Assembly (NCBI RefSeq): GCF_030686945.1
Contig: NW_027122708.1
Span: 5,610,248-5,674,247, forward strand
DNA from: Centruroides vittatus
Lineage: Eukaryota
Reading direction: 5' to 3'
Length of the DNA stretch: 64,000 nt
Under the pieces are notes generated by a model. The model made no database searches. It was given only the letters and a program-made list of their open reading frames with translations, and was not told the DNA's origin. The translations under genes were made by a program, and so were the position numbers. This document shows, in pieces, positions 3,001 to 62,200 of this stretch (positions are counted from its first letter, which is position 1; every line of letters begins with the position of its first letter).

Positions 3001-4594
3001 AATGTTCGCGATTTTATTCTCTTTTATTCTTATTTTACTGTTAAAATATTTAATTGATATGTAAAAATTAAACATTGTGTGCCAATATCATCGAATTTTT
3101 TCAAATTCACAGAATTTTTCGAAGTCCATTGCTGAAACCTTGAACGGTTATCTTTGTCCTTCTGTAGATAATTACAGGTTTGGCAAGAAGGACGTTCGTA
3201 AAATTTCAAAGAATGAAAATTAAAAAGATATAAAGCCTACTAACGACTTGTAGCGTTAAAATATTTTATCAAAGAATAGACAAAGCACGTAATATGATTT
3301 GTTATAGTATTGATTATCTCATTGAAGATATTCTAAATTCCAATAGAATTTGTGTGTGCTTAAACTAACATTCATTATATTAAAAATATTTTCGATAAGT
3401 TTATTTGGCCTGAACATTAATCAATAGCTGTTTGAGATTGTTAATACATCCAAATCTTTATTTACTATAAAAATTGTGTTATATATTAATTTATTTTTGA
3501 AAAAAAAAATTAATAATCTACAAATAAATATATCCACTTGTCAACAAATGTATGTAAAAACTACAAAAATGAACGATTTAATTGTCAATTACCATAATTG
3601 TCCGTAGAAAAAAGTAACCTAAAATTATTTACTAAGTAGGCTATATAATTTTATCATGACTTCAAAATATAATGAACACTATTTTTCAAAATGCCGTTAT
3701 TATATCTAGATAAGAGATGGCAGCACTTTAGTAAAGGTCTCAATTTTATCACCGATCTCTTTTCTCCAACGAGAGATAAGAGATTTTCTTGATAATTATC
3801 AAATTTCTGGAATTTGAGCATGGCAGAAAGGAGAACACAAGAACCATTACAGTGTTTAAGCTGTTGCATCAATAGAGTAATTAGTGAAGGTAATATTTCA
3901 ATGATAAGACCGACTCCGCCCGATTTCTCTAAAAGAGACACGTGATGGTTAGTTATCCCGCATCCATCTAGAATACAAATTGGCGATTAACTTGCCAGTT
4001 CTAAAGATCTGTAGACTTTGTTAAACAAACAGTGCAACCGACCAATGAATTATGTAGAATGGCATGGATTATATTTATATTTAAACTGCCAAATGGAATT
4101 ATATACACTTATTTTTAAATATTTGCTTCAATTGGCATCGTGTAATAAAATTAAATATTTGTTTATATTACATATGCTAAGCTAAACGAAGTCATTATTC
4201 TTGGCTTTTACGCCAATGACGACAACTGCTTATTACTGTAGATTATCACTGGCTGTTTATCATTTTCTAGTGCGCGATACATGAAAGATATGGCCACGAG
4301 CTATGTCTAAAACATCCTCTTCTAGTTCTCACATTATCTACTACTAGGATGATAATTTGACACACTTTAAGGAGCCAAGACTTTCATTTATTTATGGCCC
4401 GATGGCTCATAAGTAGTAGACATACATTCTACTACATAAATCGTTTTTAAAGCATGCCGAAATTTATGGAATCTTTGGATATTTGCCCAATAATATAGTA
4501 GAATTCGGCAAAAAAATTTTTTTTTAAAATAGAATCATAAATCTTAAATAATTTTCTATAAACGTTTTATCCACACCTGACTCTTTTACAACAC

Positions 4595-8900: not shown

Positions 8901-11900
8901 TTTTTAATCTAATACAAGTTTTCTGAAATTTTAATCAACCTTTTTCATCATTCAAACCGATTTTGAAGCAAGTTCTTAATGGTAATCCAATCAGGTTTTG
9001 TCCTTTCACATCTCGTCAACTTCGTAAAGATGAGGGCCTCTTTCTTAAAGCCGAAAATCTCCGAGAAAACTCGGAGATAATTTAGATCGGCACGATATTT
9101 TTGATATAAGCAATGGATACTAAGATCTATAATCAATGGGAAGATGTCTCCAAGAATAAAGTCGTAATTTTAAACGAGGCGCTTGTAAATTTTGAATTTT
9201 ACCTCCCCCCCGTGTTGATTGTTGCCGCGCCGCTTTCTCGACAATAGAAAAGGTAACCTGTTTCTGGACATGACGGAGGATAGTTTCTATTGTTCCCCGT
9301 CTCTCAATTATGCTGCAGTATGAAACACGTGCCTCCATCCATTGCTGGAGGTATACAACATTTACAACGTCCTTGAGAGGCTCACTCACTGATTGGGTCT
9401 GTTTTTTTCACGGGGGACAGTGCGTGACAGGGAAACACTAGAAAGAGCCTCTTATCTCGTATTGATTTTTTGAAGGAATAATTGTATCTATAGCTTATAC
9501 GTATGAGCGCTTTTGATAGCATATAATTTGGCACATAAAATCAATATTTATAGGAAGAAGCCCAACTCATTAGAAGCTAATATTAGCTTCATTATGTAAG
9601 GGAAAAAAAGTTATAAATGATTAGTTAAATATTTTGAGGGGTTCCTAATAAAATTAGCAACTCAACGAATCGTGAAGTTAAACTGAAATATTTCTGCCGT
9701 GACGGAAAAAGACACATCATAATTTCCTAAACGAAATAGCATTCAGGCAATATGCCCAATCTCGTTTATTGCTTAACACGGTTGCAAATGCGGTGTTAAT
9801 GTAAATTATACTGTTTTGAAAACAGTCAAACGAGTAGGCTAATATATCAGTATTATGTTTAGTAAATATAATTAAATATTAAATAGGAAAAATAATTGGA
9901 AAAAGTATCTCACCTTTCATGTTGTTAGTTGTTATATAGTAGTCATTCTCGAGAAAATATGCCGTCGAATTGGAAAAGTTGTGCATCAAGCGCAGATGAG
10001 TGGATCTGGACGGTTGTTTGAAGGCTTTGCTGAGCAGACAACCCAATTCGACGAGGAAGACCACTACAACGGACCATCTCAAACTAGACGAACCCATCAT
10101 CGTCTGTCTGGAGGCCAAATCTTCCGGCTAAACCTGTCTATTTATGTACCGAATGGAATAAGACATTTGGCAAACAATTCTCTCGCTCTCGTCCCCTCAC
10201 TCACTACACATCTACATCCGACGTCGAACCTACTTCCAACGGGCCAACCAATCGCAGTCCGCCTGTCATTCATATAGTGTTGTCGGGCAATCACGTGATC
10301 CGCGTTGTTTTATCGAGTCTCGAGCCTACAAATTTGACGTCATCCACATTACAAGTAACATATATTCTAATTATTTTATATATGTGAAAGCTTTTAAACG
10401 TGTTATTCTTCTATTAGCGCGCTGTCGTCATATATTATTTTTAAAAAATAAATAAGTAAACAATAAATATAAGTAACCTAATTAAGTAAATTTATTTTCC
10501 TTTTCACCAAAATCGAATAAAACTTCTACGAAATTTTGACCAGAATAAATGTTCTTTTTTAAATAGAATTTTAAAATAATTAACCTCAGTAAATAACAAA
10601 ATATAAATAAATAATTTATATAATAAAAATGTTTTAATTAAAACGTTTGTCAGTAAATAAAATGTCGCTCATATTATACGATACATTAAGCAAATAATAT
10701 CTTTATTGTATATAACTTACTATATATACATTATAATGTATTTATATTTTATATACTGTAGGCCTTTATATGTGGTCTTAAATACATTAGGCCTACTTAC
10801 TTTTCTGTCAGACTGTAGTATTTAAAAATATTACTTTTTTAAAAAATCAGTTTTAATATTTATTATGGTTATTTGTACGCCAGTTGCGCTAAAAAGAATT
10901 CCCCTAATACAAGATTTGAATCCAATCAGATAGTATTTGGTGGGTAATCCGGATCAGGGTGCATTCCTTTGCTCACCCACGATGGCCAACCAATTGCGAG
11001 TCGGATCCGGAATTAAACCTAAAATCTCATATTACTCGTTGCTGCTAGTGAAATAGTTTGTAATGCTAATGCCGTATTATAATAATTCTATTACAATTCG
11101 TTTATTTTATAAATTTTAATGATATAACTTATATCTGAATTCTACCCAATCTCTTCTGAAAAGAAAAGGCCATTTTAATCTTTTGTTGTAATTGTTAATC
11201 GTGAATAAAGTCCGGTTTTCTATTGGCTGTTTTCTCTTTTGTCCGTATAATTCCAGCAAAATATCAATCATGAGCGATTTGTTCCAAACTAAACTTTTGT
11301 GTGGAAGGTCTTCTAGCTTAATTAATCTTAACATCTTGCCAAATTTAAACTAGAAAAGCGAGTAACGCTAATTTACCGAGATACAATAGCATTACATGGC
11401 AAAGGGAAACTATTAATCAACGTAAGATACTAGGCAACGTCACCGTGCCAAGGCCTTCTACTCGAGATGATCTAAAATTCATGATATTGTGAAAGATTTC
11501 CATATTTTTAACCACAAAAATAACAGGAATTTTTCATTTTTCTCTCATTAACAGTCGCCAAACAATTAAATTTTTCAGTTAATTTAATACATTGCACCAT
11601 TATCCTTATCTGTTAATTAAGATTAATTGGGATGCTGATAGTTTTATGTGTCGAGCTTACATACATAAATAATCTAATCTTACTCATATTATATTATTAT
11701 TATTTAAATTTTCCGATAATAGCTCTTGTTTCGGCTCCTTTAAAATTTTGATAATGACGTAGGCCTAAATATATAAACATCTAACGCTAGTAATTTTATC
11801 TCTTAATTTTTTTTTGGTAGTGATGACTTTCGCTTCTAATTAAAAACACATTAGGATTGGTATAAAACCAAATTAGAAAAGAAAAAAAAGTTTAATTTTT

Positions 11901-12470: not shown

Positions 12471-15400
12471 TTCGGACACATTAAAATACTTCTACCCAAT
12501 CTACAGAAATTTATATCTTCGAAATTCCATTTTTACGGCAAATAAAACGGGTTGAGTAATTTTGTACGTATGACTAAAGAATAATCGGGAAATTTAAATC
12601 AAATTTGAAATGATTCATAGCCGTTCTATCCCTGACCCGAAGGCCTAAATAAGTTGCAGAGGATCAACAAGTCAATAGCAAACAGCTTCTAGGTTAAACT
12701 TAAATATCAATTGGAACTAACGGGGGATCTTGTCATTTAATTCGTAGATAGTTTAACGAACTGGCTTATGCTCTGTTTATTACACAAATAATTATTCTTT
12801 AAGTTATTACTTAAAGCGAAATACGCTATTAATCGTAGAAAGATTTCCAATATTACGACACGAAATGATTTGTAACTTGTTCCATTTATCGCTGTTAGCT
12901 TAATTTTGAAATTTTTAACAAAGTAGAACAATAGAAGAATGTTTTATGCTGTAGAATAAATATGAAGATAGGTTAAGCGAGTAATCTTTGTATCGCAGAG
13001 GAAGTAGATTACTCACGTATACATGGATATGTATATGTGTCTATGTACTGTACACCTATGTATATGTATCACGTATGCACTCACGTATCCATGTATATGT
13101 AAATATCTGAAACGAGAAAAATAGTTAAACATGCCATAAATTTGTCACAGATATTTATTTGCACCGATGAACGTTTAATATTCAATGTTTGACTTGGGCA
13201 TAAACACTTTCTGAATCGTAAATTATTCGCTTTGTTGCTATGCAATTCAATCTCGGAAAAACTGGCCAACAGACAAATAAGATCAGAATGCAAAACAGAA
13301 ATTTATATTTAAACTTTGCAAATATAACTTATATATACATATATTTCTTTTCTTTTCTCGTAAATATGGTGCGAGCGCATCTCATAATAGAGTTTTGTTC
13401 TAGATAATAGAATGCTTAAGATGCTCATCACAAAAATTAGGAGTTATTCATTGAATTATTTGACAATTAATGCCCACAAAGAAAAATATACACTGTGTAT
13501 ATACATTTTTACAGTATGTCTATATCATTATACTGTTTTACTGTTACTTGATAAAACTAGATCGAAATCGAATATTTTTTTAAATAAAAAAGTATTATTA
13601 TATATATTAAAAATAAATATTAGATATAATATAAAAAATACAGTATATATTTAATCGATTAATTAAGTGCTTAAAATATTCTAATATTCTGGAATGAATC
13701 TTCGATCGTTATCAAACTAGTGAATTAAACATGTCAAGAATTTATATTTAAGATTATTTTCTTCTAAATATTATAAATTCTTGGGATTTTTTTATTATTA
13801 TTATAAATTGAATTCTTGTGTTATTACGTTAAGATTAAACGAATTGCGAATAATTTATAATGAAATTTTTGATCTAAAAAATATATTTTTGTAAAAGGTA
13901 TTGAGACAGAGATCATTGAGCTTAATGAAATAAATTATTCTACTTTGATACATCCCGATGGGATTTTACTTGAAAATAACGAGTTGCCATTAAATTTATT
14001 TGGAATGTTGAGGGAATATTTTTGTAGATTTGTTGAATTGTATGCAAAATATAACAACACACAAAATAATAATATCTCAATTGTTTGTTAATATAAAATC
14101 TGATATTTTCATCACTTTGGACTTTTGATAACCCAATTTATTCACTTCACTTATTCAAACGGTATTCAATAACAGATTATTAAAAGGAACAATGCACCAT
14201 AGAATCTAAATGTAGTCCTAAGCTATTATTTTATAGGAAAACTATCAAGAAATCAATAGCACATTACTTATTTATAAATATCAAATTATCAATTGAATCG
14301 ATGAAATTTATCGTTTTTACATTTTACTTTATTTTTAACTTAGCATTTTTAATAGGTTTGTTATTGAGAGAAAAAGATAGATCTTGTTATAAATTCCCTT
14401 GATCTATCTTAATTAAATTCTTTCACTGCCTTTATTCTTTGTCTAGAAAGGAAAACAGATTAGAAATGCACTATTATGTCAGCTCTTGCAATATCTAGTC
14501 TCCCATTTCTCTATAATTTAGTAGTAAATTAAAATTAAAAAGGAGGCAGTGTCTGTGGAAGTAGCCGAATAAGAAATAGACAGACAGAGATCATTGAGCT
14601 TAATGCAATAAATTATTCTACTTTGATACATCCTGATGAGATTTTACTTGAAAATAACGAGTTGCCATTAAATTTATTTGGAAATAAACTTTCTGGGTTT
14701 GAGCCTGTGGTAAAAATCGCATTCTCTTTGTTCATTTCTTTCATTGGGATTTATTCTATTGGATAATTACTCGTTTATCGTCTACCTATTTTTATTGCTG
14801 ACATAAACCGTGGAATTCTTTATCGTATGATTGATAGCATATGCATTAACTGTCAATTACTCAAACGGAATTACAGTTCTTTGCATACGTTTTTACTTTT
14901 GTCCCTTTGCAATGACAGATAATTGTCATTAAGGATTTACATTTAACAGAAGCCGAAAACGCTCAAATTTTTTTATCACCATTAAGGAATAATGTTACTA
15001 ATAGTTGGAACTGAAAAACAGTTGAAAATTTAATTTACGTTTGACGTCATTTTCTAATTTTACTTATCATTCGGCAACGAAGACGGGCGAAAAGAATCAG
15101 TAATAAAATTTTCGTTTATAATAAATACAGCGTGATGTCATAGGAAACGATTACCACTTTTTATGAATAGTTTTTTCGTTATTTTGCTGATCTAAAGGCA
15201 TTTATTTTGAAAAGGTTGAAAGTTGTTTCGCTTTCGATATCATCTAGTAATGCTCCACTGAAGTTAATCAATATAAAAAGCAATTTTCTCTTAAATTACA
15301 AAATAAATAAACATATATGTACAGCGTACTTGCAAGTTCGACGTAATTAAAATACGAGTTTTTTAATGGTTTCTACACTAAATTTGATTAAAACGTTGAA

Positions 15401-18400
15401 ATATTCGTAAAACATACCTTCTTATTTGCCTTCTGAATTATAATATATATAATTTCAGACACAATAACTTTTAATATATTATGTTTTTGAAGTAGGCCTG
15501 TAGATATTTAAAACAATTTATCAATTAAAAGTTTCCTGTCATTCAACCAAGGCAATGCATTATGTCTTACTATATCCTGAATTTTTTGAAAAGGTAAAAT
15601 TAAATTTTAAAACTAACCGTTTTCTGCTTGAATTTTTTATCTTAATAGTCCTACACGCAATTTATTAATTAAAGATATAAAATTGTACGCTTTGAAGAAA
15701 TTCGGGAAAGTACTGTACAGTAGTAAGACGTATTCTCACGGCTGAATTAAATGATAAAACATAAATAAAGTAAATATATCGTTTCCGAACTCTTAAATTT
15801 ATATACGTTTATTGAACTCAAAAATTCTGTAATATATTCAAACGTAAGCATATTTATGAAGATAAAAGACAACAAATAGATAGGCGTGTATACAGGCGGT
15901 TATTTGTAGTAAATTGTTATTCTAGTTCTGAATAAATAAACTTTATCTGGAACTGTAATCTATAACAAATCATTTCAATGTTAAGAAAAATTCCTGGAGT
16001 ACCTCCAATCACGGAGTAACACTCAATGGGAGGTAAAATTTTAACGAGCAAGCGGACCTCAACTCGTTCGGCTTTCCCGCTTACCTTGAATAAAAATACA
16101 ACTTTGCCAGTCAGGATAGTGGAAAATTTTTATCGATTCGTTTTAATTGTTAAACTCCCAAGCTATAAAACACTACAAAATGATGAAAAACACATTCTTT
16201 TAGGATGTCCTCGGAGTGTAGCATAAATTTACACACTTTGGATAAAGTACAAAATGGTCTAAAAGGCTAGTTTCTATTGAAAAAATGTGTTATTTATCGT
16301 CACGTATATTACCAATTACTGTTTTTCTTTCCGAAATAATAAAAGAATTAAATACAAAGAGGTAAACCGTCGAAAGGTCAAATCATGCTTTAAAAGTAGA
16401 TACTGCATCCGGTTGACGATAGTAACTGGAATAAGGCCGTCTAGCATCGGAGGTCGGAACCCCCCATTCAGGGTAAGGCCAGTGATCCATCATGTGACTG
16501 ACTGATAGACGTTACTGCGAACTTATCGTCATCTTCATCTCCTACGGATAGATGTTCCTACTGTTTGGTATACATAGAATGTGTAGATGAGATGCGAGAT
16601 TGACGTTGAAGGCAATCTTCATTAAATAGTTTTAATCAATGATTTTTTTTTTAAATTTATTTATCAATCTAGAAATGAAGTATTTTTGTGGGTAAATAAC
16701 TTGCGAGACAGGTTAAACAAAGGAATGTAGAGTGGCCCGCGAAAGCATTAAATAGTTTAAAACGGAACACGAGCTTAAATGACTAATCGTTTTGGCAGTT
16801 TTCACGAGATTATTAGACAAAAATCATGGGAATAAAGCGCATGTGGGCAGAATTACACTCGATACATCATGAAGCATGTGTTAAGTGGTTAATGAATGAC
16901 AAATATAAATATTAAACAGCTTGGGATATAACATTTGATTGACGCAAATTAAACATTTTAGTAAATCATTTCATTAATATATTAATGTTAACGAGATGAT
17001 TTATTTTGTCTAAAGCTTTCTAATTACGCGCCTACTTTATTAACATTCGGGATCCTAAATTCTGCTTGTTTAATTAAAAAATAATCGATTTAATTTCATA
17101 ATGATTTATGCTCGTTTCACATATCTATTATATTTTATGCCGCATCTTTTAAATAAACCCACTTAGCTTTCGTTAATGCTTACTGGCCTATTACGAAAAG
17201 AACTTTTCGCATAAACTATAATCACGTGACTGAAATGATTGCATCTTTCTCATTTAATCATGGCCGAAGGTAAATCGAGAGTATCATAAAAATATTTTTT
17301 TCTCGGTGCTTTCAGCATCCGGCTAAAAACGAAACAAATAACAATAGCTACAAAGCGGTGTCGAATGATTTGTTCTGGAGCATTTTCGCGGTAATTATAT
17401 GAATTTACGGCCGGAGATCTCAATCAGACGATGTAAGCATTTCTAAGGAGGACCGAAAAAAGCCGATGACGATCAATTTCGGTACATTTCTTATCAAAAT
17501 TTGGGTTCCAATCTGTTAAGGTGAGCAAAAAACTGTGCTTATCGTTGACAGTTGAATGTAACCGACACAAAGTATTACCTCATTTGGAGATTCTTTTGGT
17601 AGTTTTTATAGTCGATAGCTAGCTAAAGGCATTTCTATAGATAGAGCATCTACAAAGCATCCGCTAGAGGCTATTTCATCTCAAATTTCTATCGGGATCC
17701 TGCTTAATGTCACGAATTGTTAATCTACAAATACGATCTTGCTGGTATTCCGTGCATAAATTGTCAAATATTTGTTTGCAAATATTGTATCGGAATGGAT
17801 ACAAAAAATAAGTAGAATAAAATTCTTTCCATTTATATTTTTCACTTATAACGTGCGTGTTATATACCGTATAATACGCACGTTTTCCCGAAAAATACTG
17901 TCTGAAAATGGGGTACGTCTTATATGCCAATAGTAAGAATTGATTATTGTTTATAAATATACGCTAGTTAAATAGTTAAATTAATTATAGCATATACAAT
18001 ACGCTATAATTAATTTAAATGTATAAATTTGCATTAATGAAACTTTTTAATGTTAATTTTTTGTTACGAAAGACGAAGTGTAACTGATAGCATTAACAAT
18101 AGGAAACAAATTAATATGAACGGTATTAAAATCTATAAATCAACATATAATTAAGCTGATAATTTATTATTAAGAGTGAATAGCCTCATTTTTTAATAAT
18201 AATATTATTATTTATAAATTATCAGAAGGTAGTTTAATAATATTTATAATTTCGTCAGCTGGGTGCTAATAGATGAATGGATCAAATACTTTTTAGAATA
18301 AAGTAAGTAGTTCAGTGAGTTTCATTTCATGAAAACAGAAATTTGATTGATTAATATTATACTTATTTTAAAATTAACTTTGGAAATGAGGAAACGATGG

Positions 18401-21400
18401 TCATTATTGCTGGTGGACACTTTTAACAGGTTCTTCTACATTTCAGTCAGGTTCAAATTTAATTAAGACGTTTCCTAATGTTTGGCTCCAGGCTAAAATC
18501 GCATAAATTATCCGAGAGATTTAGCATTTTTTATCATTAAAACTTAATTTTTAATTTAAAATTCGGCATCGTCACCTTTCTAATCATTCCGAGTCACGAT
18601 ATTCTTGCCGTTAGTAACTGGAATTCGGAATGAAATTTGAAATTTTAAAAATTTGTTGACACGAAAATTGCAAAAATCTGTGTAATTTCGCCCGCCTGTT
18701 ATTCTAATAGTAATTAAAATAAAGTGGTGACGATATTCACGCAGGATTTTTACCATAGAAGCACGCCAAAAGAAGTATTTTCGTGTTTTCTGCTCACGAA
18801 GAGGCACGCAGAAACTTATTTCATGCATATATAACACGATCGCGTTGCCAATTATAATAGAAATCATCGATAAAACTGAAATTCTGAGATGTCATGGGAG
18901 GGAGCTAAGTACAAGAAGAGGTATCAAAGTCATGCGGGTAAACAGGGAGGCCTATCCATGACTGACATCTAAGTGGATTGTCGACGGACCTCCCCACTTC
19001 AGCTGTCTTCTAACGAAGGATAGAAGGCGGGCATGGAGTGAAGGTCACGTATAACCCGAAACTTCAATTAGCAGAAATTAATTAGAAAGAGGCGAAGTGA
19101 TATCCCAGGGTTGGAGCGAATGACGGCTTTTCAACCCACGCAGTAGCAGCTTTCTGTAGTCAAGTCATACTCAATTACTGTATCTTTATGCTCAGAATAA
19201 ATAAAAGCGTTTAACACGTTCTAATCGGTATATCGACCAATAAAACGTCATACAGTCACCGTGTGTTAAGCACACTCGTTACGATTCACTTCCTACGTCA
19301 ACTGGCAACGGTGAAAATAGAAAAACCATTAATAAATAAAATAAAGGGGAAAAAATAAGAAAATTTAATAGAATTATCGATATTTATTGAAAATTATGCT
19401 TCAAATTTTGTAAAAATAAATGGGATATTTAAGTAAGAATTTGCTGTTATACAATCGGTTGTGATGCAAGAAATAATGTTGCAAGAATCCAGAATTAAAA
19501 ATTCTTTAGAAAATTCCACTTGGCGTTTAAAGCTGGAGGGAAAGTGATTAGTACAAAGTAGAGCATTGTTTATCGTAGGAATTTCTATTATTATTTTGTT
19601 TTATTTTTTTGCTTTAACTAGCTCGTTTCAACGTAACTTACTAAGTGAATTATTAGTAACGCCAACCAATTCAACATAGCGTAACAACATTATTTGCAAA
19701 TTGGAATCTTTCAACAATGGAATTATATGTTTGATAGTTTAAACAGCTCGACAGTTTCTTTGATCAATTGTACTTCTTTCTAAATCATCATCGAATTTTC
19801 TTCTTTTTGTAACACGGATATTATTGTAAATATAATACGTAAATTATCGATAATTGTTTCCTTTAATATCACGATAAATTAAATTAAGTGAGCTAAAGGG
19901 CAAACTTTTATTTTTTAAATCCTTTGTTAGAAAATTTTATAAATACTGGGTCAGGATATGTTGTAAAAACATGCATAGATCTACAGGTTAATTAAGTGCT
20001 TATATAGGTCAGCGGTTACGAGCAAAACTGTGCTACCAATTTTTAATGAAATTGTTTAATTTTCACATCATTTATTGAAAACATTCTAAATTTCTCCCTT
20101 ATAACGATTATAGAAGAAGAGGAGCAAAAAGGTGAGACGGATGTTAAGATTTGAATCACTGCGTCGTGGTATTAAACAGAATCCCAGAAAAATATAATCT
20201 CTTATACGACTAAACACAGTCACATTTAGGGCTATATCGCAATTTAAATATGAAAATTAAAATAAAAGTAATCATAATATTAAAAGAAATTGCCCCAATA
20301 CGCTTATAAGACGGAAAAGAGTGGAGCCTATGGCAAAATGTTACTAATTTGTTTATTTTAATGCACAATATCATCATTTTCCTCAACACTTGCACAAGAA
20401 ACATGGACACTTTTCATAAGATTCATAATATGTAATACATGTATAATAATATAAGCACTCAACATTATGTTCACTCAAAATAGAGTTCATTACAATAAGA
20501 TAAGTAATATCAACATCATTTTCAAATGTTAACGAAATGATTTATTTAACATTCTTTGATCTCTTTAGCTGCTTTGAGGAAGTCTTTCTTATTGGCTATT
20601 GGGAAATCGGACATCCGAAGTTGCCCTGGTTTCCTAATAGCCAAATTGAAATGGTTCTTCTTTCCCCATCTTACCTCTAAGCGACAGAACCTATCTTGCC
20701 CCAAATGCTGTACTAATCAAATATGGCCGTTCCTCGTTATTTACTGAATTACAACGAAAATTTATATTATGTGTCCATTTATATTACATTATCAAATGCC
20801 GTTTACGTTTGGTATTTCAATATAATAGATATTTGTTTATTATTTATGACTAAATTTTAATTATAAGTTTATCTCTGTTATCATGATTTTACTTCATTTT
20901 ATAAGAATAAAAGTTCAAGCTACTCGACTTAACTCAGTACTGCGCATTTAGTATAATTTAACTCAGTGGTTCTGTGTCCACGGGCTACGAAATTCTAAAA
21001 TTACTTAAAAATGCTAATTTGAATATTATTTATATACATTACTTTTTATATAAAAAAGTGCAGACCTTCTCATCTCTGATGTGACGTGCCATTAGCTTAA
21101 GAAAAGGTCCAGAATCATTGGTTTAACTCCCGCATTGCCCGCGTTAGAGTATGGATCATTAAGATTCGAACCCTCGCCTTCTAATATAAAAGTAATAATC
21201 CATCTTAGTACTTTATAAATCCAGAAAACTTGTCAAAATATTTCTGATAAATATATATATATATATATGATTATTATTATTTATAACAAAACATAAAGCG
21301 ACCTACCTACCTTTAATTTAAGGATCCACGAGAACAATTCAATATTATATCTTGGATTAGTTTTAAACAATTCCGAGAAAGAGTTAAAAAATTAGGCAAT

Positions 21401-34465: not shown

Positions 34466-34722
34466 CGGGGAACTTTTTCCCTAGATACTAGACGGCGACG
34501 GGGAAATTTCTTTTCCTTACGTTCGAGATGGCCGTGTTTCCGGTAATCTCGAATCAGATTATCGAGTGATAATCTGGAAGCAGATTAACAATGGATAATC
34601 TCGAAGTAGAATACCGAGTGATCTAAACGTTAGGGGCGTACCCGTACTATCTGTCGCATTATGCAAATTAATAAATTTCCCCGTCGCTGTCTAGTATCTA
34701 GGGAAAAAATTTCCCTAGTAGG
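34466..34722. mobile_element. MITE/foldback-like element with ~32-bp terminal inverted repeats.
   Basis: TIR ccctagatactagacGgcgacggggaaatttc (34484-34515) pairs with gaaatttccccgtcgcTgtctagtatctaggg (34672-34703) at 1 mismatch. Each TIR contains the palindrome gggaaatttccc-like core. The interior has two ~30-bp direct repeats (ggtaatctcgaatcagattatcgagtgat / ggataatctcgaagtagaataccgagtgat). Confidence 0.5.
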
Positions 34723-34767
34723 AATTGACTTAAAAATTTTTTTTTAATATATTACTTGTTTAATTTA

Positions 34768-35095
34768 AAATATATGCTCTTCACCTCAAATTAGTACTGT
34801 AGTGTCTTACTCCTGTACATTATACTTTCCTGCTAGCAATAGCCTGTGCCGGTTATCTAACTGTTTTCCGGGAGAATTTTTGAATTGAAATAACGTGACT
34901 TTCGGTTTGTATCGGAATTTTATGTATAGATATATAGTTAATCGAGGCTATTGCCGATAAGGTTTCCATATATGATCTCGGATTTCATATATCTAACTCA
35001 GTTCTTGAGATTAAGGAAAGACAGACAAACAGACGGATGACTGGGAATTTATAGGTCTACAATTTTTTTCAAATTACAACCCAAAAATCGAACAC
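34768..35095 (+). mobile_element. Family-C interspersed element, copy 1 (plus orientation).
   Basis: ...cctgctagcaatagcctgtgccggttatctaactg...atagttaatcgaggc...aatttataggtctacaatttttttcaaattacaaccc is shared with 61.65-61.79 kb and 62.04-62.17 kb. Confidence 0.65.
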
Positions 35096-35477
35096 GATAC
35101 TTATAAATCTAACTTCAAAATCTAGATAATTATTAATCATCTTTACTTTTGAATGAAACAAACTATAAACGCGAAAAATCATTTCCTAGAAAAATTCGAT
35201 TTTGGTTTAGTTTATATTCATGTTTTCAGACGTCCAAACTCCATTTAAATGGAATTTGAAATAGTGCCAGAAGTATACATCAATCAAGCATTAGCCAAAC
35301 ATTAACTTATATTAATACTTTTATATCTACCAAATAAACAAATTCGCTAAGATATTCACATTCGGGCAATGACACGCGTTTAATTTTATAATGAATCAAT
35401 AGAATACAGTATTAGCTTTTTCTCCTCTCATATTTTTCCGACGTATTGCATTTATCTCTCGTGCGTAACATTTTATT

Positions 35478-35790
35478 GGGCTGCAATTTGAAAAACTTGT
35501 AGACCTATAAATTCCCACTGCCGTCCGTCCGTCTGACTGTCTTTCCTTAATCTCGAGAAATAAGTTACATAGATGAAATGCGAGACCAGATATGGTAATC
35601 TTAGGGGCTTGAAGCCCGGATGAACTATATACGAACTTTCGATACAAATCAAAAGTTACGTTATTCCAATTCAAAAACTTTTCCCGAAAGCTGTTAGATG
35701 ACCGGCACGACTTTATTGTTAAAGGAAAAGTACGATGTACAGGGGCAAGCCACTACTAATTTGAGGTGGAGAGCATATATATTCAGTTTG
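35478..35790 (-). mobile_element. Family-C element, copy 2, in inverted orientation relative to copy 1 (spacer ~380 bp).
   Basis: gctgcaatttgaaaaacttgtagacctataaattccca...ttaaggaaag...ccggcacgactttattg...gtggagagcatatat is the reverse complement of the 34768-35095 copy, checked segment by segment. Confidence 0.65.
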
Positions 35791-36039
35791 TTTGTTTATA
35801 TAGTGTCGTGTCTATTGCTATATTCGAAGATCATATGGGGGAATTTTATTAAATTCGCATTTAAAAATTTTTTTATCCGTTCAACTCTGCTCTCCCAAAT
35901 CCTGAGTGGTCCACTGCTACAGAATATAGACAAAATATTGTAAATTGAGTCAATTAATTTTAAACTGTGCTGTTAACTACTAATTTAAATCAGTAGCTTA
36001 AAATAAAATAAAAGCAGCAGAACTGGAATTGAAGAGGTG

Positions 36040-37800
36040 GATAATAAATTGGGGCCCACAGGCTGCTCGCTTTCTCTCGAAGTGCGTTATATCGAGTCAC
36101 CAGGGTAGAATATATCCGAGTACATAGACGTCCGCATCAGTGGCGTAACTAGCATGGGTGACACCCGGTGCAGATATCGTGGTGTCACCTTTTTAAACTC
36201 TTTTATAAAACACTGTTGAATTGTAATATCTTCGCACTCGAGCAACTTGAACGCTATATTGAATATGCGATGTCGCGACCTATGAGTTTAGATTTATAGA
36301 ATAAATCATAGTAAGATTTTCAGCTGGTGCGAGCTCTCGTGGCGTCTCCTCATAGCGAAGAAACTGTCATGGGAGGCGAGCCGTTGACCTTTTGTTTTTT
36401 ATTTTTTTTTTATTTTTTAGGTACAGGCCTACCGGGTGTCACCCCTACACGAGTGACACCCGGGGCGGGCCGCCCCCTCAGCTACGCCTCTGGTCCGCAT
36501 AGGGAAAAAACGGGCACTTTCCCCCCTCCCTGGGATCGAATAAAAGAATTCCACAAATTATAATTGTAAAGGTCATGACATGTAACCTTATACCCTCGAC
36601 CAGGACTATTCTATAATCTACTCGTGGGATAGGGGGGCGTGTACTAGCCGCTGGAGGTACGGGTGAACTTTTAGTGAAGCTTGATAATTCTGTTCTGAGT
36701 GAATTGAAAACCCATAAGAAGCCGAAATATGACAATTTTAAAGAAGTGGTTATTTGTGAATAGACTTTCCTTGATTTTAATTGTGTGTTTATTAATAATT
36801 GCTGGGATTGAGTCCAATCCAGGCCCTTTCCCTCGATCTCCACAACAAATACGTCAAGAAGATATGCAAAGAAGGGGACGAGGCAGACCTTGCAAGAATA
36901 AGCTTCAAGAAAAAGAAAGGCAATTGAGCGATACATCTAGTGAACATTATTATCAGTTAGAGGATGTTTTTAATAAAAATAGTCCTGGGACCTCGAGAGC
37001 TACGAAAATTTACGACTACTTCGAAACTTCAAGAGATCTAGGGCCACAAGTTCAGGAAGAGTCACAATTTACATTGAAAGCAATATACGAGCTAATTCAA
37101 GATAAGTTCTCTCTTCTTCATACTGAACTACAAGGAATTAGAGCAGAAGTCATTGCTTTGAAAGAAGAAAATAAATATTTGAATGGAGAATTGTCAAAAT
37201 TATCCCAAAAAGTAGAAGAATTAGAGGAAATATCTAATAAGAATTGCCAATTGAAAGGTATGTTAGAATTTGAAATAGACCAGCTAGCTAACGTGAGAAA
37301 TAATAATAACATTATAGTTTTAAACTTTCCGTTCAACTCGACCGATCATGTAAAAGAAATTAATCAGTTTATAAAAAAGGACTTGGGAATAATTAATAGT
37401 CACATAAAAGGAGTGGTTAGATTAACCAAAAGTGAAATCAATCCCATAGTGAAAATATTATTGGGGTCCGTATATGATAGGAATCTGATTATTAAAGAAT
37501 TCTGGAAAAAGAAAGGCGACTTCAATAATAAAGTGAAGGAAAAGATAATAGTTACTTCGGATTTATGCATGAGATCCAGAATGAGAAGAAAAAAATTATT
37601 GGCAATAATTAAAGAAGAAAAACACAATGGGAATAGAATTATTATAAAAGATGATTATTATATTAAAGACAACATAAAATATACATATGATATTAATCTA
37701 GATAAAGTAGTCCAATTGAATGATTTTTCGAGAAGAATTGATCGTCATCTTAGTTCTGATTATGGCTAGATAGAAGAAATAATAGTTAGTTTGAATGTTT
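36040..37800 (+). mobile_element. Truncated or solo non-LTR (L1-clade-like) element: GC-rich 5' region plus ORF1, with no ORF2/RT downstream.
   Basis: A GC-rich block, 36040-36720, rich in inverted repeats (GTGACACCCGG / CCGGGTGTCAC), lies immediately 5' of ORF1. The sequence after the ORF1 stop (37770-39700) is AT-rich and ORF-free. No RT or endonuclease ORF occurs anywhere in the window. Confidence 0.55.
36729..37769 (+). CDS. Non-LTR retrotransposon ORF1 protein of L1 type (Transposase_22-like). It has an N-terminal 2A-like peptide and an AT-hook.
   Basis: 346-aa ORF starting at a real ATG. Residues 21-33 LLIIAGIESNPGP (nt 36789-36827) resemble the viral 2A / retrotransposon 2A-like motif (LLKLAGDVESNPG|P). 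RRGRGRPCKNK (GRGRP at nt 36876-36890) is an AT-hook. A heptad coiled coil (LHTELQGIRAEVIALKEENKYLNGELSKLSQKVEELEE) is followed by an RRM-like plus C-terminal domain. That region aligns from memory to human L1 ORF1p: NIIVLNFPF ~ NLRLIGVPE, GVVRLTKSE ~ HIIVRFTKVE, KIIVTSDLCMRSRMRRKK..IIKEE....RIIIKD.YYIKDNIKY ~ IRLTADLSAETLQARREWGPIFNILKEKNFQPRISYPAKLSFISEGEIKYF. Confidence 0.85.
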   Translation: MTILKKWLFVNRLSLILIVCLLIIAGIESNPGPFPRSPQQIRQEDMQRRGRGRPCKNKLQEKERQLSDTSSEHYYQLEDVFNKNSPGTSRATKIYDYFETSRDLGPQVQEESQFTLKAIYELIQDKFSLLHTELQGIRAEVIALKEENKYLNGELSKLSQKVEELEEISNKNCQLKGMLEFEIDQLANVRNNNNIIVLNFPFNSTDHVKEINQFIKKDLGIINSHIKGVVRLTKSEINPIVKILLGSVYDRNLIIKEFWKKKGDFNNKVKEKIIVTSDLCMRSRMRRKKLLAIIKEEKHNGNRIIIKDDYYIKDNIKYTYDINLDKVVQLNDFSRRIDRHLSSDYG

Positions 37801-40800
37801 AAATGCTAAAACTATGGTAATAGAAAAATTGAAACAGATTTGGCCTACACTTATTCCTTATGATAATCATTATTAAAGTTTTTTCTAAGATAGAAGATCG
37901 AAAAAATATCAACTATTCCACCGAAGTCATTATATCAAGTACATAACTGATATATTTCTCCTGAATTCTGCCTATCTTAAGATTGTTCTAATCTGTCAAA
38001 ATCTTGTGTGGTATAATATAATTTCAGAACCTTATATAGCAACTGATATGTTTCAGAATTTTTTACCATTAAATTTCTCTACCTGGCTAAGATTTAATAA
38101 TAAGAAGATAATTCAATAATAATAATTATTATCTTGCAGTTGGTGCTATTCTAGATGTAGGGGTTTTTATCCCCCAAAAATTATAAGTGTCGTTTTATAG
38201 CAAGGCACTAGTGTTACGAAATAGATATAACCTCCGTGCGACAAACAAGATCAACAATGAAATACTAACTAAGCATTTTGTACGTGAAAAAATTATAATT
38301 TGATGATAATTTGTATAATTTAAAAAATTTTTTGTAGTTATGTAATGTGATATAATATATCAAATACATATGTTTGCAGTATTGCAAATATATATCAATG
38401 TTGAACAAATTAGATATTATTATAAGACGTCAATATTTTATAATTATTAAATAACAAAATCAACTATGTTGGTATCAACTGATTCTCCCCCTTGTAACAG
38501 GTATACCCTATTACAATAAACTTTACTTACTACTACTACTTACTCGTGGGATAGCCTTAAATATTTATCACATTTAAAATTAAGACTGATTACCTAATGG
38601 TACAAATAAAATATATATGGATTATTTTTACGAATTTTAATGACTAAGTAATTTTATTTAATTAAATCTATTATATTTATTATTTTTGAAAGCAATTGGC
38701 TTATACAGTAATAAAATTTATATAACTACAGTCTTAATTCTCATTTGGATTTTATTGATTGGCGCATATTTAAAATTTTGCACTAGTTTCATCATATTTA
38801 TTTTTAACCAATATAAAATTTAACTATTGTTTTATTTGACGGTGAGGCCGAGAGAAATATTTTTCTGGAAAATGTATGCCCTTCTTTTTATTCGTTACTT
38901 GAAAAAAATCATAAATATACCTTAGAAATTGTAGTAATTAATTAATTCCGCGGAATTAACGCTATTTATTTAGTTTTTATTACATTTAATTTATAAAGAA
39001 AAGTCAACTTTTAGCCTACTTGAATACGAAATTTTTAAGTTTGTATTTACTGTAATTGATTTCTGTGCATGGAGATTCTTACAACTTCATTCAATTCCAA
39101 ATATTTGGTCGAATGAAAACCATTTTTTACATTTTTATATAATATATTCGATTTTTGAAGTGATTTCTTTCTATGACGTTTTCTGTTTTTAAATAACTGA
39201 AATGCCTGTTATAAAATAGAAGAATAATTTTTCTATGAAATTCTGATATTTTTTTCCGACAACGAAGTAATAAGTGAAAAGACTTTGAAGCATTTACAAA
39301 CTGAAAAAAATACGAAAAGTTAAAGATTAGAAAACAGCTTATTTATTTATTTATTTTTATTTATAATAAACAATCAAATTTATTTTCTATTTTAGAAACC
39401 GAAAATTAAATATTTTAAAAAGCTATATTTTGTTTTTTAAAGTTAATATTCATTTGCTTGTTATTAAAAATAAAAAAAAAGTTTTATTAATAAACTTTCA
39501 TTATTTGTATAACTTTTTTTAAATCTAATTTTAAATATTTAAACTGTATCAAAGTTTGATATCGTTTTTAATAAAGCAGTTTGAATAGATTTACTCTATT
39601 TTGATGTTAAATGTTTCATAGTAATTCTCAAATTCACGTGCAGAATAGTCGAGAAACAGACTATTGTTAACGTCGATTTAATTATATTGATTTATTTGCT
39701 CAAACTTTATGAAAACGCAGAAAAAGAAAGAAAACGGCAGAAACCTTTTTTTTCCTTTATCACAAAGTACACATTTTTACAGAATCGGAAGTTTGCTTTT
39801 TCTTTTTACCGACAGAAAACTGACATTGTTAAGACTTCCGCTCGGAAACAGGAAATGTCGTATGCGGTCGTGTCTCGTTTTACGCATTATCGACGCCATT
39901 TCCTATCAATTTCCAATTGATTTTAGAAATTGTTATGAGATGCAGATATATAAATTTTGGTCTTTCAATAATGCACATACATTTTTATATTTCAATAACA
40001 TATATATAGATTTTCAAACACAAACAAGCATTAGAAATTATTGAGATACTTCCGTGGAATAGACTGATTGAGCTTAAAACAAGTTAATTTGTACCAGTTT
40101 TATGAGAAGGATAAGCAAATAGCATCCAAACATCACTTTACTAAACTCATTTTCCGTCTAAACAACACCAAGGATTACTTTCGTTAAGAGAAAGCGGAAT
40201 TACATTTGTCACAGAAACAAAATAACGTTAATTACATCGTCTAGTCTATGGAAGAACGAATCTCTTCTAATAATAGTCAATGCCCTAATTACGCTATCCT
40301 CATAGCTCTATATCAATAACAGATAACACAATTAACTTTAACTATTGAATACCACGTCCTAACTATATATATAGAACACGTGTTCTAACCCTTTCGTTAA
40401 CGTTAATTAAATAGGCTATTTTAATATCTACTTTGTGAAACTCGAATTAACTTAGGCGTTTCTTAAATATTAACATTGCAACAATTTTAGCGAAAAGTCT
40501 TTTCGTCGACTCGTTTTCAAAACGGAAACTATTTATGAAACTCGTTACAACGTCGAGATGATGCGCAAATTTATAAATTTATCTCGTGCGAAATCCCAAG
40601 AATGATTTTTATATGTTTATATAATGAACTCTCGAGATAAAGTGTTTGCTAAAAACAGAGACTATAAAGTTTTCGAGAGGGTTATAAAGTATTTTTATCC
40701 AGAAATAATTTTAAACTTGTTAACATGTCTTAGAAATTTGCTCAAAATTTCTGCACGTTTTACAATTAAGCCTACAGTTTTTTTTTATTTAATAATTAAT

Positions 40801-53524: not shown

Positions 53525-55444
53525 ATGCTTAAAATTTGTTTTCTTTCAGGCGATATTACAGAGGAAGAGGATGTTACTAATCAAACTCTGACGTCTATGA
53601 TGACGTTCGACGTCATCAATCGTAGCGTATGGATTGTGGACGTAGAGTGGCAAACATCCAAAGATAATTCGACGTGGTGGACTACCTGGAACGAAAACAA
53701 TGATACCATTTATCTAAGCGTCACCAACTGTACCAATCAAAGCGAATCTTGTAATGGTACCAACATAGTGCCCGAGAGTCCTCCTTTCAACTTATGGCAG
53801 ACCATAGTTATTGCTGTTCTGATAGGAATATGCTCCCTCCTAACCATAGCGGGTAATATATTGGTTCTTTTGGCGTTTGTAGTGGAACGAACAATACGTC
53901 AACCCAGCAACTATTTCATTGCTTCTTTAGCCCTCTCCGATCTTTTTATTGGAATCATCTCCATGCCGTTTTACGCCGTATACGTATTAGTCGGAAGGTG
54001 GGATCTAGGTCCTATTACCTGCGACTTGTGGTTAGCAATCGATCATACCGTATGTCTGGTTTCCATCTACACTGTATTATTAATCACTATCGATAGATAT
54101 TGTTCGGTCAAGATCGCTACTAAGTATAGAGCCTGGAGAACCAATACCAAAGTGTGGTGGATGGTAATCACTACTTGGATTGTTCCGTTTTTAGTCTTTT
54201 TCATTACAGTTATGGGTTGGGAACATTTTATTGGTTATCGTGATTTAGCTCCCGGTGAATGTGCGGTGCAATTTCTTAAAGATCCCATCTTTAATACTTC
54301 TTTAATATTTGGATACTTTTATCTCACTCTCATTGTACTCTTCGTCCTTTACGCGGGAATATACAAAACGGCCAGCGACATGCAAAAGAGATCCGAAGCC
54401 AAACAGAAAAAAGTGCAATCTTTGGTCTCCATGAATAAAGAAAAATCAGAGGAGAAATCCGTTTTGACAACATCAAAATCGTTCGGCAAAGAAAAAAGAA
54501 AACTTGAATCAAACAATGTAACAAATTCGAATCAAAGAAACACAGATTCGACAGAAGGGCAAAATACAGAAAAAAAATTCGAGACGTCATTTACTGAAGA
54601 AAAGAAAGAAAATTCCGATCATTCGAGCAGCCCCGTTTTTGATTCTGACGAAGAAAATGCTGCCCCTCAAGCAAATAAAAAAGAAAAGCGAAAATCCGCA
54701 GGTAGATCGATAGAAAACTTAAAATCAATTCCTAAAATACAACCCATTCCTCCCCCTCCTCCCCTGCCTCCTCCTCAACCACTCTGTCAATCTTTAAGCA
54801 GATCGTCAAGAAATAACGAAGAGAGCAAAATAAAATTACTACGTGCAGAAATGGACGAGAGAAAATTTAAAGATAACGAAAGACCTGGTAATCTGAACGT
54901 GAGTTACGTAGATCAAGAATGCCCTTCGACGTACACACAACTGCCAACTCTCTTACATTTCGAAGGAGGAGAAGTAAAAGATATAAATGCATTACGTAAC
55001 TCGGGGGAAAGCATTAAAGCTCGAGACGAAATGCAACCCATTGTGGACCCCGAACGTTCGGCATTCTTAACGATTTCAAAAGAATTATCATCTTGTTCCA
55101 AAAAAGTATCTTCTCTTCGACAGAAATTTAAAAAAGGAAGAAGCAAACTAAAAGGAGAAAAAAGACAAAAGTCTAAATCAGAAAACAGAGCCAGAAAAGC
55201 TTTGAGAACAATATCATTTATTCTGGGAGCATTCGTGTTATGCTGGACTCCCTATCACATTTTAGCCGTTGTAGAAGGTTTCTGTTCTGTTTCGTCCGGC
55301 TGTGTCAACCATCATTTCTTTTATTTTACTTATTTTCTTTGTTACGCCAACAGCCCTATTAACCCATTCTGTTACGCATTGGCCAATCTACAGTTTAAGA
55401 AGACTTTTTATCGTATTTTAAGAGGCGATTTTCACAGAAAATAA
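53525..55444 (+). CDS. Class-A GPCR of muscarinic-acetylcholine / biogenic-amine type. At least nt 53550-55444 are coding.
   Basis: 640-aa continuous ORF. Helix motifs recalled from mAChR sequences: TM2 [24 protein letters not shown]3 [12 protein letters not shown]...IDRYCSV (Asp3.32 and DRY present), a ~240-aa Lys/Ser/Pro-rich third intracellular loop, TM6 [16 protein letters not shown]7 [20 protein letters not shown] (compare M2 NPACYALCNATFKKTF). N-glycosylation sites sit in the N-terminus. The first in-frame ATG is at 53525, but a strong acceptor tttgttttctttcag ends at 53549, so the true 5' end is probably spliced. Stop TAA is at 55442-55444. Confidence 0.9.
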
Positions 55445-58938: not shown

Positions 58939-59057
58939 TCGACGATTTTATTTTTTTATTTTATTTCGTTTTCTTCGTTTTTATTATTTTTTAATTATTT
59001 TTAATTATTCTTAATCATTAATTTCAATTAAATTAAATTAACACGGTGAAGAAGGAG

Positions 59058-59630
59058 TTAATAATACAAATTGATGTTGATGTGTTCAGATAATAAATTA
59101 ATTTCAAAATAATGACGCCTTCCTTCTTGATGTCTTCCACTTTCTCTGCGTTCACTCTCTCTCTCTTCACGTTCTCTGTGTTCACTCTCTCTCTCTTCAC
59201 GTTCCCTGCGTTCATTCTCTCTCTCTTCACGTTCCCTGCGTGCATTCTCTCTCTCTTCACGTTCTCTGTGTTCATTCTCTCTCTCTTCACGTTCCCTGCG
59301 TTCATTCTCTCTCTCTTCACGTTCTCTGTGTTCATTCTCTCTCTCTTCACGTTCCCTGCGTTCACTCTCTCTCTCGTCACGTTCTCTGTGTTCATTTTCT
59401 CTCTCTTCACGTTCTCTGCGTTCACGCTCTCTTTGATTTTGATTATTTTCTCTTATCGTTCTTCTAATTTCTGCTTCTTCTTCTCTTTCTCTAATACGCC
59501 TTAATCGCATTCTTTCTCGATTCTTTCGTAGGCGTTCTTCTCTTTTTTGTTGTGTTTCGTTAGCACGCCTTTCTCGTTGTTTCACTCTATTTATTTCCCT
59601 TTCTCTTTCTCTTTTTTCTAAGATGTCCAT
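59058..59630 (-). CDS. Candidate Arg/Glu-rich repeat-protein ORF (190 aa). Its C-terminal half is encoded by the 30-bp minisatellite.
   Basis: ATG at 59630-59628 sits in an aaaaATGG context. The unique N-terminal 65 aa (MDILEKREREREINRVKQRERRANETQQKREERLRKNRERMRLRRIRE...) are already RE-rich before the tandem repeats begin. The RE-rich coding potential therefore extends beyond the repeats. Further RE/RD-rich ORF pieces continue downstream on the same strand (58938-58741). Confidence 0.35.
   Translation of the reverse strand: MDILEKREREREINRVKQRERRANETQQKREERLRKNRERMRLRRIREREEEAEIRRTIRENNQNQRERERREREERENEHRERDERESERREREERENEHREREERENERREREERENEHREREERENARREREERENERREREERESEHREREERESERRESGRHQEGRRHYFEINLLSEHININLYY
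59131..59440. repeat. 30-bp minisatellite, about 10 units (ttcactctctctctcttcacgttctctgtg and variants).
   Basis: A direct tandem periodicity of 30 nt is read off the sequence from 59151 onward, with unit variants ttcattctct.../gttccctgcg. On the minus strand every unit encodes a 10-aa E/R-rich repeat (REREERENEH type). Confidence 0.95.
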
Positions 59631-61589: not shown

Positions 61590-62200
61590 TATTTATTGTG
61601 ACATCGTTACAATGCCGGGCTGCAACTTTTCGTCACAATGTTCTCAATTCCTTTAGTCCTGTACTTTATAGTTTTCCTGTTAGCAATAGAGTCGTGCCGG
61701 TTATCTATCTAACTCCGTTCAGGGAAAAATTTTGGATAGATGTAACGTGACTTCCTGTTTGCATCGTAAGTTCATATATAGTTAATCTGGGCTTCCAGCT
61801 CCCAGGGGCGGATCTACATAGGGACTAATAGGGCTTAAGCCCTGGGCCCCAAGTGTCAAGGGCCCACAAAAATTGAATTATTACTATAAATTTTTAATAC
61901 TTTTTCATTAACAATGAGCACTTATCGATATAGTGTCACTCAACACCATTTCATAAATAAATATATTTCAACTCTGATTTTTATGTTATTAAAAATGAAT
62001 TTTTTTAAACCGCAATTTAAAGAATCTTAATTGCTCCTAACCATATCTAGTCTCGACTTTCGTCTATTCTCGAGATTAAGAAAGGACGGACAGAAACACA
62101 GATAGACAAGAGATATCAGTCGGAATTTATAGGTCTACAATTTTTTCAAATTGCAGCCCGATAATTTATTTTATAAACGCGATATTTACGAGAACATACT
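61590..62200 (+). mobile_element. Family-C element, longer copy. It includes an extra ~240-bp internal segment relative to the 34.8-kb copies and abuts a family-B SINE.
   Basis: It shares both the head (tcctgtactttatagttttcctgttagcaatagagtcgtgccggttatcta...) and the tail (...gaatttataggtctacaattttttcaaattgcagccc) with the 34.8-kb copies. The internal segment gggcggatctacatagggactaatagggcttaagccctgggcc...(61805-62040) has no counterpart in them. Confidence 0.55.

Follow-up and report, generated by a model that had tools for sequence, protein, structure and literature searches.

The 2A-like peptides reported from long interspersed nuclear elements (LINEs) of the apurinic/apyrimidinic endonuclease (APE) type lie almost all at the N-terminus of open reading frame 2 (ORF2) in single-ORF elements, with one case, L2A-1_NVe, at ORF1 (Odon et al. 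2013; PMC3708506), while in five ticks and a limpet proteins resembling the ORF1 product (ORF1p) have been described with a 2A-like leader before their coiled coil (PMC13405545, a 2026 preprint). ORF1-only derivatives of LINEs are represented in mammals by HAL1 (half-L1; Bao & Jurka 2010, as cited in PMC4161310). The locus analysed here lies in a 64,000-nt stretch of the Centruroides vittatus genome (contig NW_027122708.1, positions 5,610,248 to 5,674,247; GC content about 30%), referred to below as the window, and contains an uninterrupted ORF of 346 amino acids with an ATG start (36729-37769, forward strand, stop codon included), whose product begins with MTILKKWLFVNRLSLILIVCLLIIAGIESNPG|P and has RRGRGRPCK farther on. 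This ORF is the ORF1 of a scorpion-type LINE, a mobile-element copy and no new host gene. The copy was considered, with fair though limited confidence, to be one retrotransposed, non-autonomous ORF1-only unit (the half-L1 or HAL1 arrangement), inserted from an RNA lacking ORF2. A preliminary description of the locus had spoken of 2A-like peptides at the ORF1 N-termini of several APE-type LINEs; that wording was imprecise, the peptides of Odon et al. lying at ORF2 with a single ORF1 case, and the ORF1p examples of ticks and a limpet coming from the preprint.

The ORF was embedded in a 1908-bp unit (36633-38540) bracketed by an exact 14-nt direct repeat, TACTCGTGGGATAG. Related loci and proteins are designated below by L and P numbers, respectively. 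The parts of the inserted copy, all on the forward strand, were as follows:

36619-36632 (+): upstream copy of the target-site duplication (TSD), TACTCGTGGGATAG, adjoining the conserved 5′ terminus and matching 38541-38554 exactly over 14 nt.
36633-36728 (+): 5′ terminus of the element and short 5′ untranslated region (UTR), GGGGGCGTGTACTAGCCGCTGGAGGTACGGGTGAACTTTT..., aligning with the 5′ ends of L002, L003, L004 and L006.
36729-37769 (+): intact ORF1 of 346 amino acids, recognised from its translation, from Centruroides ORF1 homologues and from profile and Foldseek matches to L1 ORF1p.
37770-38400 (+): non-coding spacer of 631 nt in place of ORF2, without similarity to ORF2 or inter-ORF sequence of the family and with 14-22 stops per frame per approximately 210 codons.
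38407-38523 (+): conserved 3′ UTR end of the family, with AATAAA at 38517-38522, located by Smith-Waterman alignment to the 3′ UTR of L002 (12460-12570).
38524-38540 (+): 3′ tail of short repeats (TTTACTTACTACTACTACT region, (TAC)n), read from the sequence, L003 having a similar tail, (AAT)n.
38541-38554 (+): downstream copy of the TSD, TACTCGTGGGATAG, an exact 14-nt match whose first bases (TACT) extend the tail repeat.

The 5′ ends of L002, L003, L004 and L006 read GGG(G)CGCTG...G(T/C)GAACTTTT, and the sequence adjoining the upstream TSD (GGGGGCGTGTACTAGCC...GTGAACTTTT) was matched in these four loci, which belong to subfamilies with ORF1s only 23-45% identical. Homology of the window copy to L001 began at 36643; the 10 nt GGGGGCGTGT were considered as an untemplated 5′ addition, which was rejected, the start being likewise G-rich in L002, L003, L004 and L006. 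At the other end, the alignment to the 3′ UTR of L002 had a Smith-Waterman score of 63 against 31 +/- 5 for shuffled sequences (z of about 6), and none of 1000 shuffles reached 63. The 14-nt repeat was situated exactly at both expected junctions, its upstream copy adjoining the conserved 5′ terminus and its downstream copy the tail, and the overlap of the tail and the downstream TSD in TACT looks like the microhomology expected of target-primed reverse transcription. Given the TSD, the conserved 5′ terminus, the 3′ UTR end and the tail, 36633-38540 is a product of target-primed insertion in which both ends of the element are preserved.

As stated in the preliminary description, no ORF2, reverse transcriptase (RT) or endonuclease followed the ORF1: tblastn with three ORF2 proteins of the family gave nothing better than E = 0.07 over the whole 64 kb, and comparisons of the sequence beyond the ORF1 stop with ORF2 and the inter-ORF region scored no better than shuffles. 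Stop codons were abundant in the spacer and absent from ORF1; the base composition of the spacer was non-discriminating, the ORF2 of L002 being likewise without strong skew. Since the 3′ terminus is present and the interior ORF2 is gone, the copy is an ORF2-less element, HAL1-like or internally deleted, and not a 3′-truncated fragment, one of the origins that had been put forward.

Close homologues of the ORF1p were exclusively proteins of Centruroides (bark scorpions; 43-63% identity, 57-63% for the best matches), and the remoter members (20-29% identity) belonged to other Centruroides subfamilies and to bivalves. In the C. vittatus gene models P0004 and P0033, ORF1 continued into Exo_endo_phos and RVT_1 domains. 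L002, from C. sculpturatus, had an intact ORF1 (332 amino acids, with the motifs MAGIEPNPGP and KRGRGRPRK) followed at a distance of 41 nt by an intact APE and RT ORF2 (1152 amino acids); L003 and L007 had the same layout, and L001, a decayed copy, retained ORF1, APE and RT in order. An APE and RT ORF2 was thus located downstream of ORF1 in L002, L003, L007, L001 and P0033, but not in the window copy. As intact relatives carry ORF2 directly after ORF1, the family is a bicistronic family of non-LTR (non-long terminal repeat) retrotransposons. With ORF2 directly after ORF1 in L002, L003, L007 and P0033, and with the hallmarks of a transposable element (TE) kept in the window, the earlier view of the ORF as an orphan, possibly domesticated gene was not sustained. 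The RT of the family matched that of R2 with E = 4.5e-25 and L1 ORF2p with E = 7e-17 in a comparison made without a clade reference set; with this slightly better match to R2, the element probably lies outside the L1 clade proper. The ratio of non-synonymous to synonymous substitution (dN/dS) between the ORF1s of the window and L002 was about 0.16, with saturated dS. This is purifying selection on ORF1 between active element lineages and has no bearing on domestication of the window locus. The same ratio calculated against L001 past residue 133 or thereabouts was discarded as invalid, L001 being frameshifted there.

Other observations were made on these relatives. L002 (C. sculpturatus KZ494901.1, 7836-12572) is a seemingly intact, potentially active full-length element with the conserved 5′ terminus and the 3′ UTR AATAAA, whose ORF1 is annotated in RefSeq solely in a shortened form (P0007). 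P0003 (C. vittatus “chromatin target of PRMT1 protein”) and P0002 are RefSeq models with fragments of the ORF1 family spliced into host-gene predictions, likely annotation chimeras from unmasked TE copies. In L001 (C. sculpturatus KZ494369.1), 6979-10435 was duplicated at 99.9% identity with respect to 13726-14560 and 18203-20824 around the decayed element, a pattern due to recent segmental duplication or else to an artefact of assembly. At L005/L006, one contig bore three or four ORF1 copies that were nearly identical and about 6.6 kb apart.

Within the ORF1 product, the following features were distinguished:

36729-36827 (+): 2A-like (StopGo) leader, residues 1-33, MTILKKWLFVNRLSLILIVCLLIIAGIESNPGP, recognised from the sequence, a helix model of residues 2-24 and conservation in the family.
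36870-36896 (+): AT-hook-like basic motif RRGRGRPCK, residues 48-56, recognised from the sequence and from K/RRGRGRPRK in relatives.
37074-37298 (+): coiled-coil helix, residues 116-190, a single long helix in the AlphaFold2 model (predicted local distance difference test, pLDDT, above 90), aligning to the coiled coil of L1 ORF1p.
37308-37754 (+): RRM-like domain and C-terminal domain (CTD), residues 194-342, from the secondary structure of the model, profile matches to 2ykp and 2ldy, and Foldseek.

Pfam on the single window protein gave neither Transposase_22 nor AT_hook, and only coiled-coil noise below the cut-off. Because Transposase_22, which the preliminary description had proposed for a profile search, was not matched, a family profile (built from 21 members) and a structure model were used, and the L1-type assignment is carried by profile and fold. 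The best match of the profile was human LINE-1 ORF1p (2ykp/2yko, E = 2e-10; 2ldy, 1.4e-5), from the last part of the coiled coil through the RRM into the beginning of the CTD. The AlphaFold2 model (mean pLDDT of 78) comprised a helix (residues 2-24), a disordered segment (25-115), one long helix (116-190) and a compact alpha/beta region (194-342). Ranks 1-9 of its Foldseek matches in the PDB were all human L1 ORF1p (E = 8.6e-7 to 2.1e-4), the RRM/CTD region matching 2yko, 2ykp, 2ykq, 2ldy and 2w7a. The coiled coil, RRM-like and C-terminal domains proposed earlier were thus recovered by profile, model and Foldseek, and, as modelled, the assignment of the window protein to the coiled-coil/RRM/CTD ORF1p of L1 structural type is sound in terms of fold and architecture. 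The human and mouse LINE-1 ORF1p structures (2ykp, 2yko, 2ldy, 2w7a), the best match in profile and fold, share this succession of coiled coil, RRM and CTD; however, identity to them was only 12-15%, and L1 ORF1p has neither a 2A leader nor an AT-hook. Exact-protein look-ups of the window ORF, P0002, P0004, P0005 and P0006 gave no record in a collection without C. vittatus, and an Rfam scan of 34500-39500 gave nothing.

The 2A-like motif noticed earlier at the ORF1 N-terminus was confirmed by the sequence and by aligned conservation in the family. The NPG|P needed for skipping was present as N30-P31-G32-P33, at positions kept across the aligned family, with the predicted skip site between G32 (36822-36824) and P33 (36825-36827). 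The core, G26-I-E-S-N-P-G-P33, lacks the canonical Asp and belongs to the GxExNPGP class, which is recognised as a non-canonical core in functional 2A peptides (PMC13405545). The 2A of infectious flacherie virus (IFV) is listed with AGIESNPGP as its C-terminus and approximately 99% cleavage (PMC8623073), and picornavirus 2As ending in EGIEPNPGP and QGIESNPGP exist (PMC11512398). The warning that G in place of D left activity unguaranteed was therefore too cautious, though a variant of the IFV 2A was cleaved poorly in one study (PMC3508920). Positions -19 to -9 (SLILIVCLLII), together with the AlphaFold2 helix at residues 2-24, fit the context identified in a 2026 screen, in which a hydrophobic Leu-rich helix before the motif was associated with skipping as well as with lower protein abundance (PMC13405545).

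The motif [AG]G[IV]E[SPLQ]NPGP was aligned in eight relatives (P0004, P0005, P0006, P0007, P0009, P0011, P0012 and P0016), and GDIESNPGP in P0020. In the alignment, at least 14 diverged members, bivalve ones included, had a 2A-like motif at this position, some with ORF1s only 20-25% identical. The 2A-like and AT-hook motifs are not chance matches, because they are aligned in relatives only 20-50% identical. The 2A motif had decayed solely in copies that were frame-broken or chimeric, to NPES in L001/P0001 and to NPSP in P0003. In leaderless sister subfamilies (P0013, P0014), ORF1 starts with MQRSP.KRGRPP, aligned two residues past the predicted skip site; upstream of this start there were in-frame stops in L007 and no NPGP in L006. 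The leaderless subfamilies were observed at the following loci:

L006, 6844-7001: leaderless ORF1.
L007, 6800-7954: leaderless ORF1.
L005: leaderless ORF1.

From these sequence features, the leader is predicted to be a StopGo element that would free ORF1p from the hydrophobic peptide and limit its output. Translation would start at M1, and the nascent hydrophobic helix (residues 2-24) and GIESNPG|P would act as a StopGo/2A within the exit tunnel of the ribosome. Some ribosomes would then fail to form the G32-P33 bond, releasing the 32-residue leader and an ORF1p with Pro33 as its N-terminus; the others would read through, stall or give a reduced yield, and the leader would also throttle ORF1p output. 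In the mature ORF1p, a disordered N-terminal arm with the AT-hook-like motif would precede a coiled coil mediating trimerisation, and the RRM and CTD would coat the RNA of the element.

The N-terminal segment may, as a possible but rather unlikely alternative, not skip at all, acting as a signal peptide, a membrane anchor or a pure translation attenuator, with NPGP kept for some other reason. Residues 1-26 show the n-region/h-region layout of a signal sequence, N-terminal 2A-likes can serve as signal sequences if skipping fails (PMC4981915), about 70% of the ORF1p 2A-like leaders tested were classed as “reduction”, with lower protein abundance rather than clean skipping (PMC13405545), and, as noted, an IFV 2A variant was poorly cleaved in one system (PMC3508920). 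Skipping also depends on upstream context; this and the poor IFV variant count against a StopGo function. However, the full GxExNPGP, beyond mere hydrophobicity, was kept over deep divergence and lost in dead copies, the leaderless subfamilies begin at the post-skip position, and targeting to the endoplasmic reticulum is of no obvious use to an RNA-coating ORF1p, all of which argues against this alternative.

Among described 2A-bearing proteins, those of the ticks and limpet (PMC13405545) are close to the window ORF1p: these too are coiled-coil/RRM/CTD ORF1ps with a 2A-like leader on the N-terminal side of the coiled coil and a hydrophobic Leu-rich helix before the motif, and the tick host is likewise a chelicerate. 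The window copy differs from these leaders and from L2A-1_NVe in being scorpion-type, with GxExNPGP, a subsequent AT-hook-like motif and no ORF2. The last nine residues of the 2A of IFV (Iflaviridae), AGIESNPGP, are identical to those of the window (PMC8623073), but their upstream context is charged (TRAEIEDELIR), whereas the window leader is strongly hydrophobic, and the viral 2A lies inside a polyprotein, whereas that of the window is at the extreme N-terminus.

The AT-hook-like motif had been presented as a canonical AT-hook following the 2A and as a DNA-binding add-on. RRGRGRPCK is indeed present, with a GRP core flanked by Arg/Lys (R-G-R-P; KRGRGRPRK in relatives), and it is conserved in the family as K/RRGRGRPRK in close subfamilies and KRGRPP in more distant ones. 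The window motif has a Cys where relatives have Arg and fails Pfam AT_hook (PF02178, cut-off 17.4 bits), to which the P0005 segment scored 18.7 and the L002/P0007 segment 16.4. Found in most members of the family, L002 included, the motif is a feature of active elements and not an add-on of this locus, and is slightly degraded in the window copy. In an ORF1p, RNA binding would be as plausible as binding to the minor groove of AT-rich DNA. No description of an AT-hook linked with ORF1p was found in the literature searched.

In its organisation the window copy corresponded to HAL1, in that both have ORF1 only and keep LINE termini, HAL1 being presumed to be mobilised by the ORF2p of autonomous relatives. 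The HAL1-type features of the window copy were an ORF2-less single insertion unit, both termini common to autonomous relatives, a tail and a TSD; in contrast, HAL1 is a multi-copy family of the L1 clade in mammals, and here a single arthropod copy was found. Loss of ORF2 before insertion, that is, from the inserted RNA, was favoured over later deletion because a clean deletion leaves the unrelated spacer beside a perfectly intact ORF1 unexplained. Such an ORF1-only RNA would move only if the ORF2p of a full-length relative acted on it in trans via the common 3′ end. More tentatively, and on balance doubtfully, the copy may represent an arthropod counterpart of HAL1, a lineage of ORF1-only LINEs with their own 2A-led, AT-hook ORF1p that parasitise the ORF2p of full-length relatives via the common 3′ end.

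Several points weigh against insertion of an ORF2-less unit of this family. The ORF1-only structure is known from one copy; L004 was considered as a second one and rejected, an assembly gap of Ns following its ORF1. A lone 14-nt repeat turns up at about 0.5% of random anchors in this AT-rich window (matches of at least 14 nt at 15 of 2856), and the 3′ UTR similarity to L002 is moderate (approximately 65% identity with gaps). Identical TSDs would also result if a full-length element had inserted and its interior had then been cleanly deleted. The window ORF1p, finally, did not match Pfam Transposase_22, and its RRGRGRPCK, with Cys where relatives have Arg, did not match AT_hook.

Accordingly, a full-length ORF1 and ORF2 insertion that later lost ORF2 by internal deletion or replacement was also considered; the copy would be a dead remnant, its ORF1 open only through youth. 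The TSDs and both termini would outlast an internal deletion, the perfect 14/14 TSD suggests a young insertion in which an open 1-kb ORF needs no selection, and no second ORF1-only copy was found among the sequences examined. Nevertheless, this origin was considered unlikely: a simple deletion does not account for 631 nt of stop-rich sequence, without similarity to ORF2 or the inter-ORF region, beside an intact ORF1, and it must have taken all of ORF2 yet spared both the stop codon of ORF1 and the end of the 3′ UTR.

The region upstream of ORF1 had been described as a GC-rich region of its own. This GC-rich block (36020-36640) was outside the element and common to no relative. It contained the following feature:

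36139-36492: hAT-like miniature inverted-repeat transposable element (MITE) of 354 bp, with terminal inverted repeats CAGTGGCGTAACT / CAGAGGCGTAGCT and an exact 8-bp TSD, GTCCGCAT, at 36131-36138 and 36493-36500.

Inside the MITE, 36156-36169 and 36431-36444 form an inverted repeat, perfect over 14 nt, and 36390-36418 is a T-rich tract. The block was rejected as a 5′ UTR or promoter of the element, as it lies outside the TSD, is not found in relatives and holds the MITE; the attribution of the GC-rich region to the ORF consequently failed, most of it being MITE.

Domestication as an L1TD1-like host gene derived from ORF1 (with a function such as AT-hook nucleic-acid binding, expressed from the GC-rich upstream region) could call on the intact ORF1, the purifying selection between lineages, the GC-rich region upstream and the precedent of L1TD1 (PMC4161310), itself an ORF1-derived coding sequence without ORF2, but it was considered very improbable, and the window ORF1 is probably not a domesticated gene: its transposon hallmarks are all sharp (exact TSD, 5′ terminus, 3′ UTR end and repeat tail), whereas L1TD1 has lost such hallmarks and is syntenic across mammals, the GC-rich region is outside the TSD and largely MITE, dN/dS below 1 between TE lineages is expected of active elements and uninformative on this locus, and the AT-hook and 2A leader are no additions made at this locus, being shared by active elements of the family, L002 for instance.

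With this copy and its relatives, scorpion-type LINEs join the chelicerate and mollusc elements bearing a StopGo/2A leader on ORF1p, with a non-canonical GxExNPGP kept across the whole ORF1 family. Leader-bearing subfamilies, and subfamilies whose ORF1 starts at the post-skip position, form a natural comparison; if a HAL1-like lineage exists, the leaderless sisters would make the leader a test case for why retrotransposons put StopGo before ORF1p. The conserved AT-hook-type motif after the skip site suggests that the disordered N-terminal arm makes an additional contact with nucleic acid. This motif, the contrast between leader-bearing and leaderless subfamilies and the possible arthropod HAL1-like unit go a little beyond the known kinds of element. 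For genome annotation, the window locus should be masked as a TE copy and not recorded as a novel gene.

Other features of the window were also observed. An intronless ORF of 639 amino acids (53525-55444, forward strand) encoded a gar-2 / type-B muscarinic acetylcholine receptor (its matches carrying Pfam 7tm_1), with best matches in Limulus and Centruroides vittatus (51-67% identity), and may be an unannotated paralogue; excepting this G-protein-coupled receptor gene, all other ORFs of at least 110 amino acids in the window were shorter than the 346-amino acid ORF1. A tandem-repeat, coding-like region with overlapping ORFs was present at 59033-59630 (both strands), including a minus-strand ORF of 190 amino acids rich in RERE/EERENEHRERE, and the 58-60 kb bin had strong negative GC and AT skews (-0.18 and -0.19, respectively). 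A dispersed repeat family of approximately 300 bp, which ties the window to scorpion genomes, was found at 34767-35087 and 35473-35783 (an inverted pair just upstream of the element), 61658-61802 and 62040-62187, and also in L001 of C. sculpturatus (3046-3461), with 71-87% identity.

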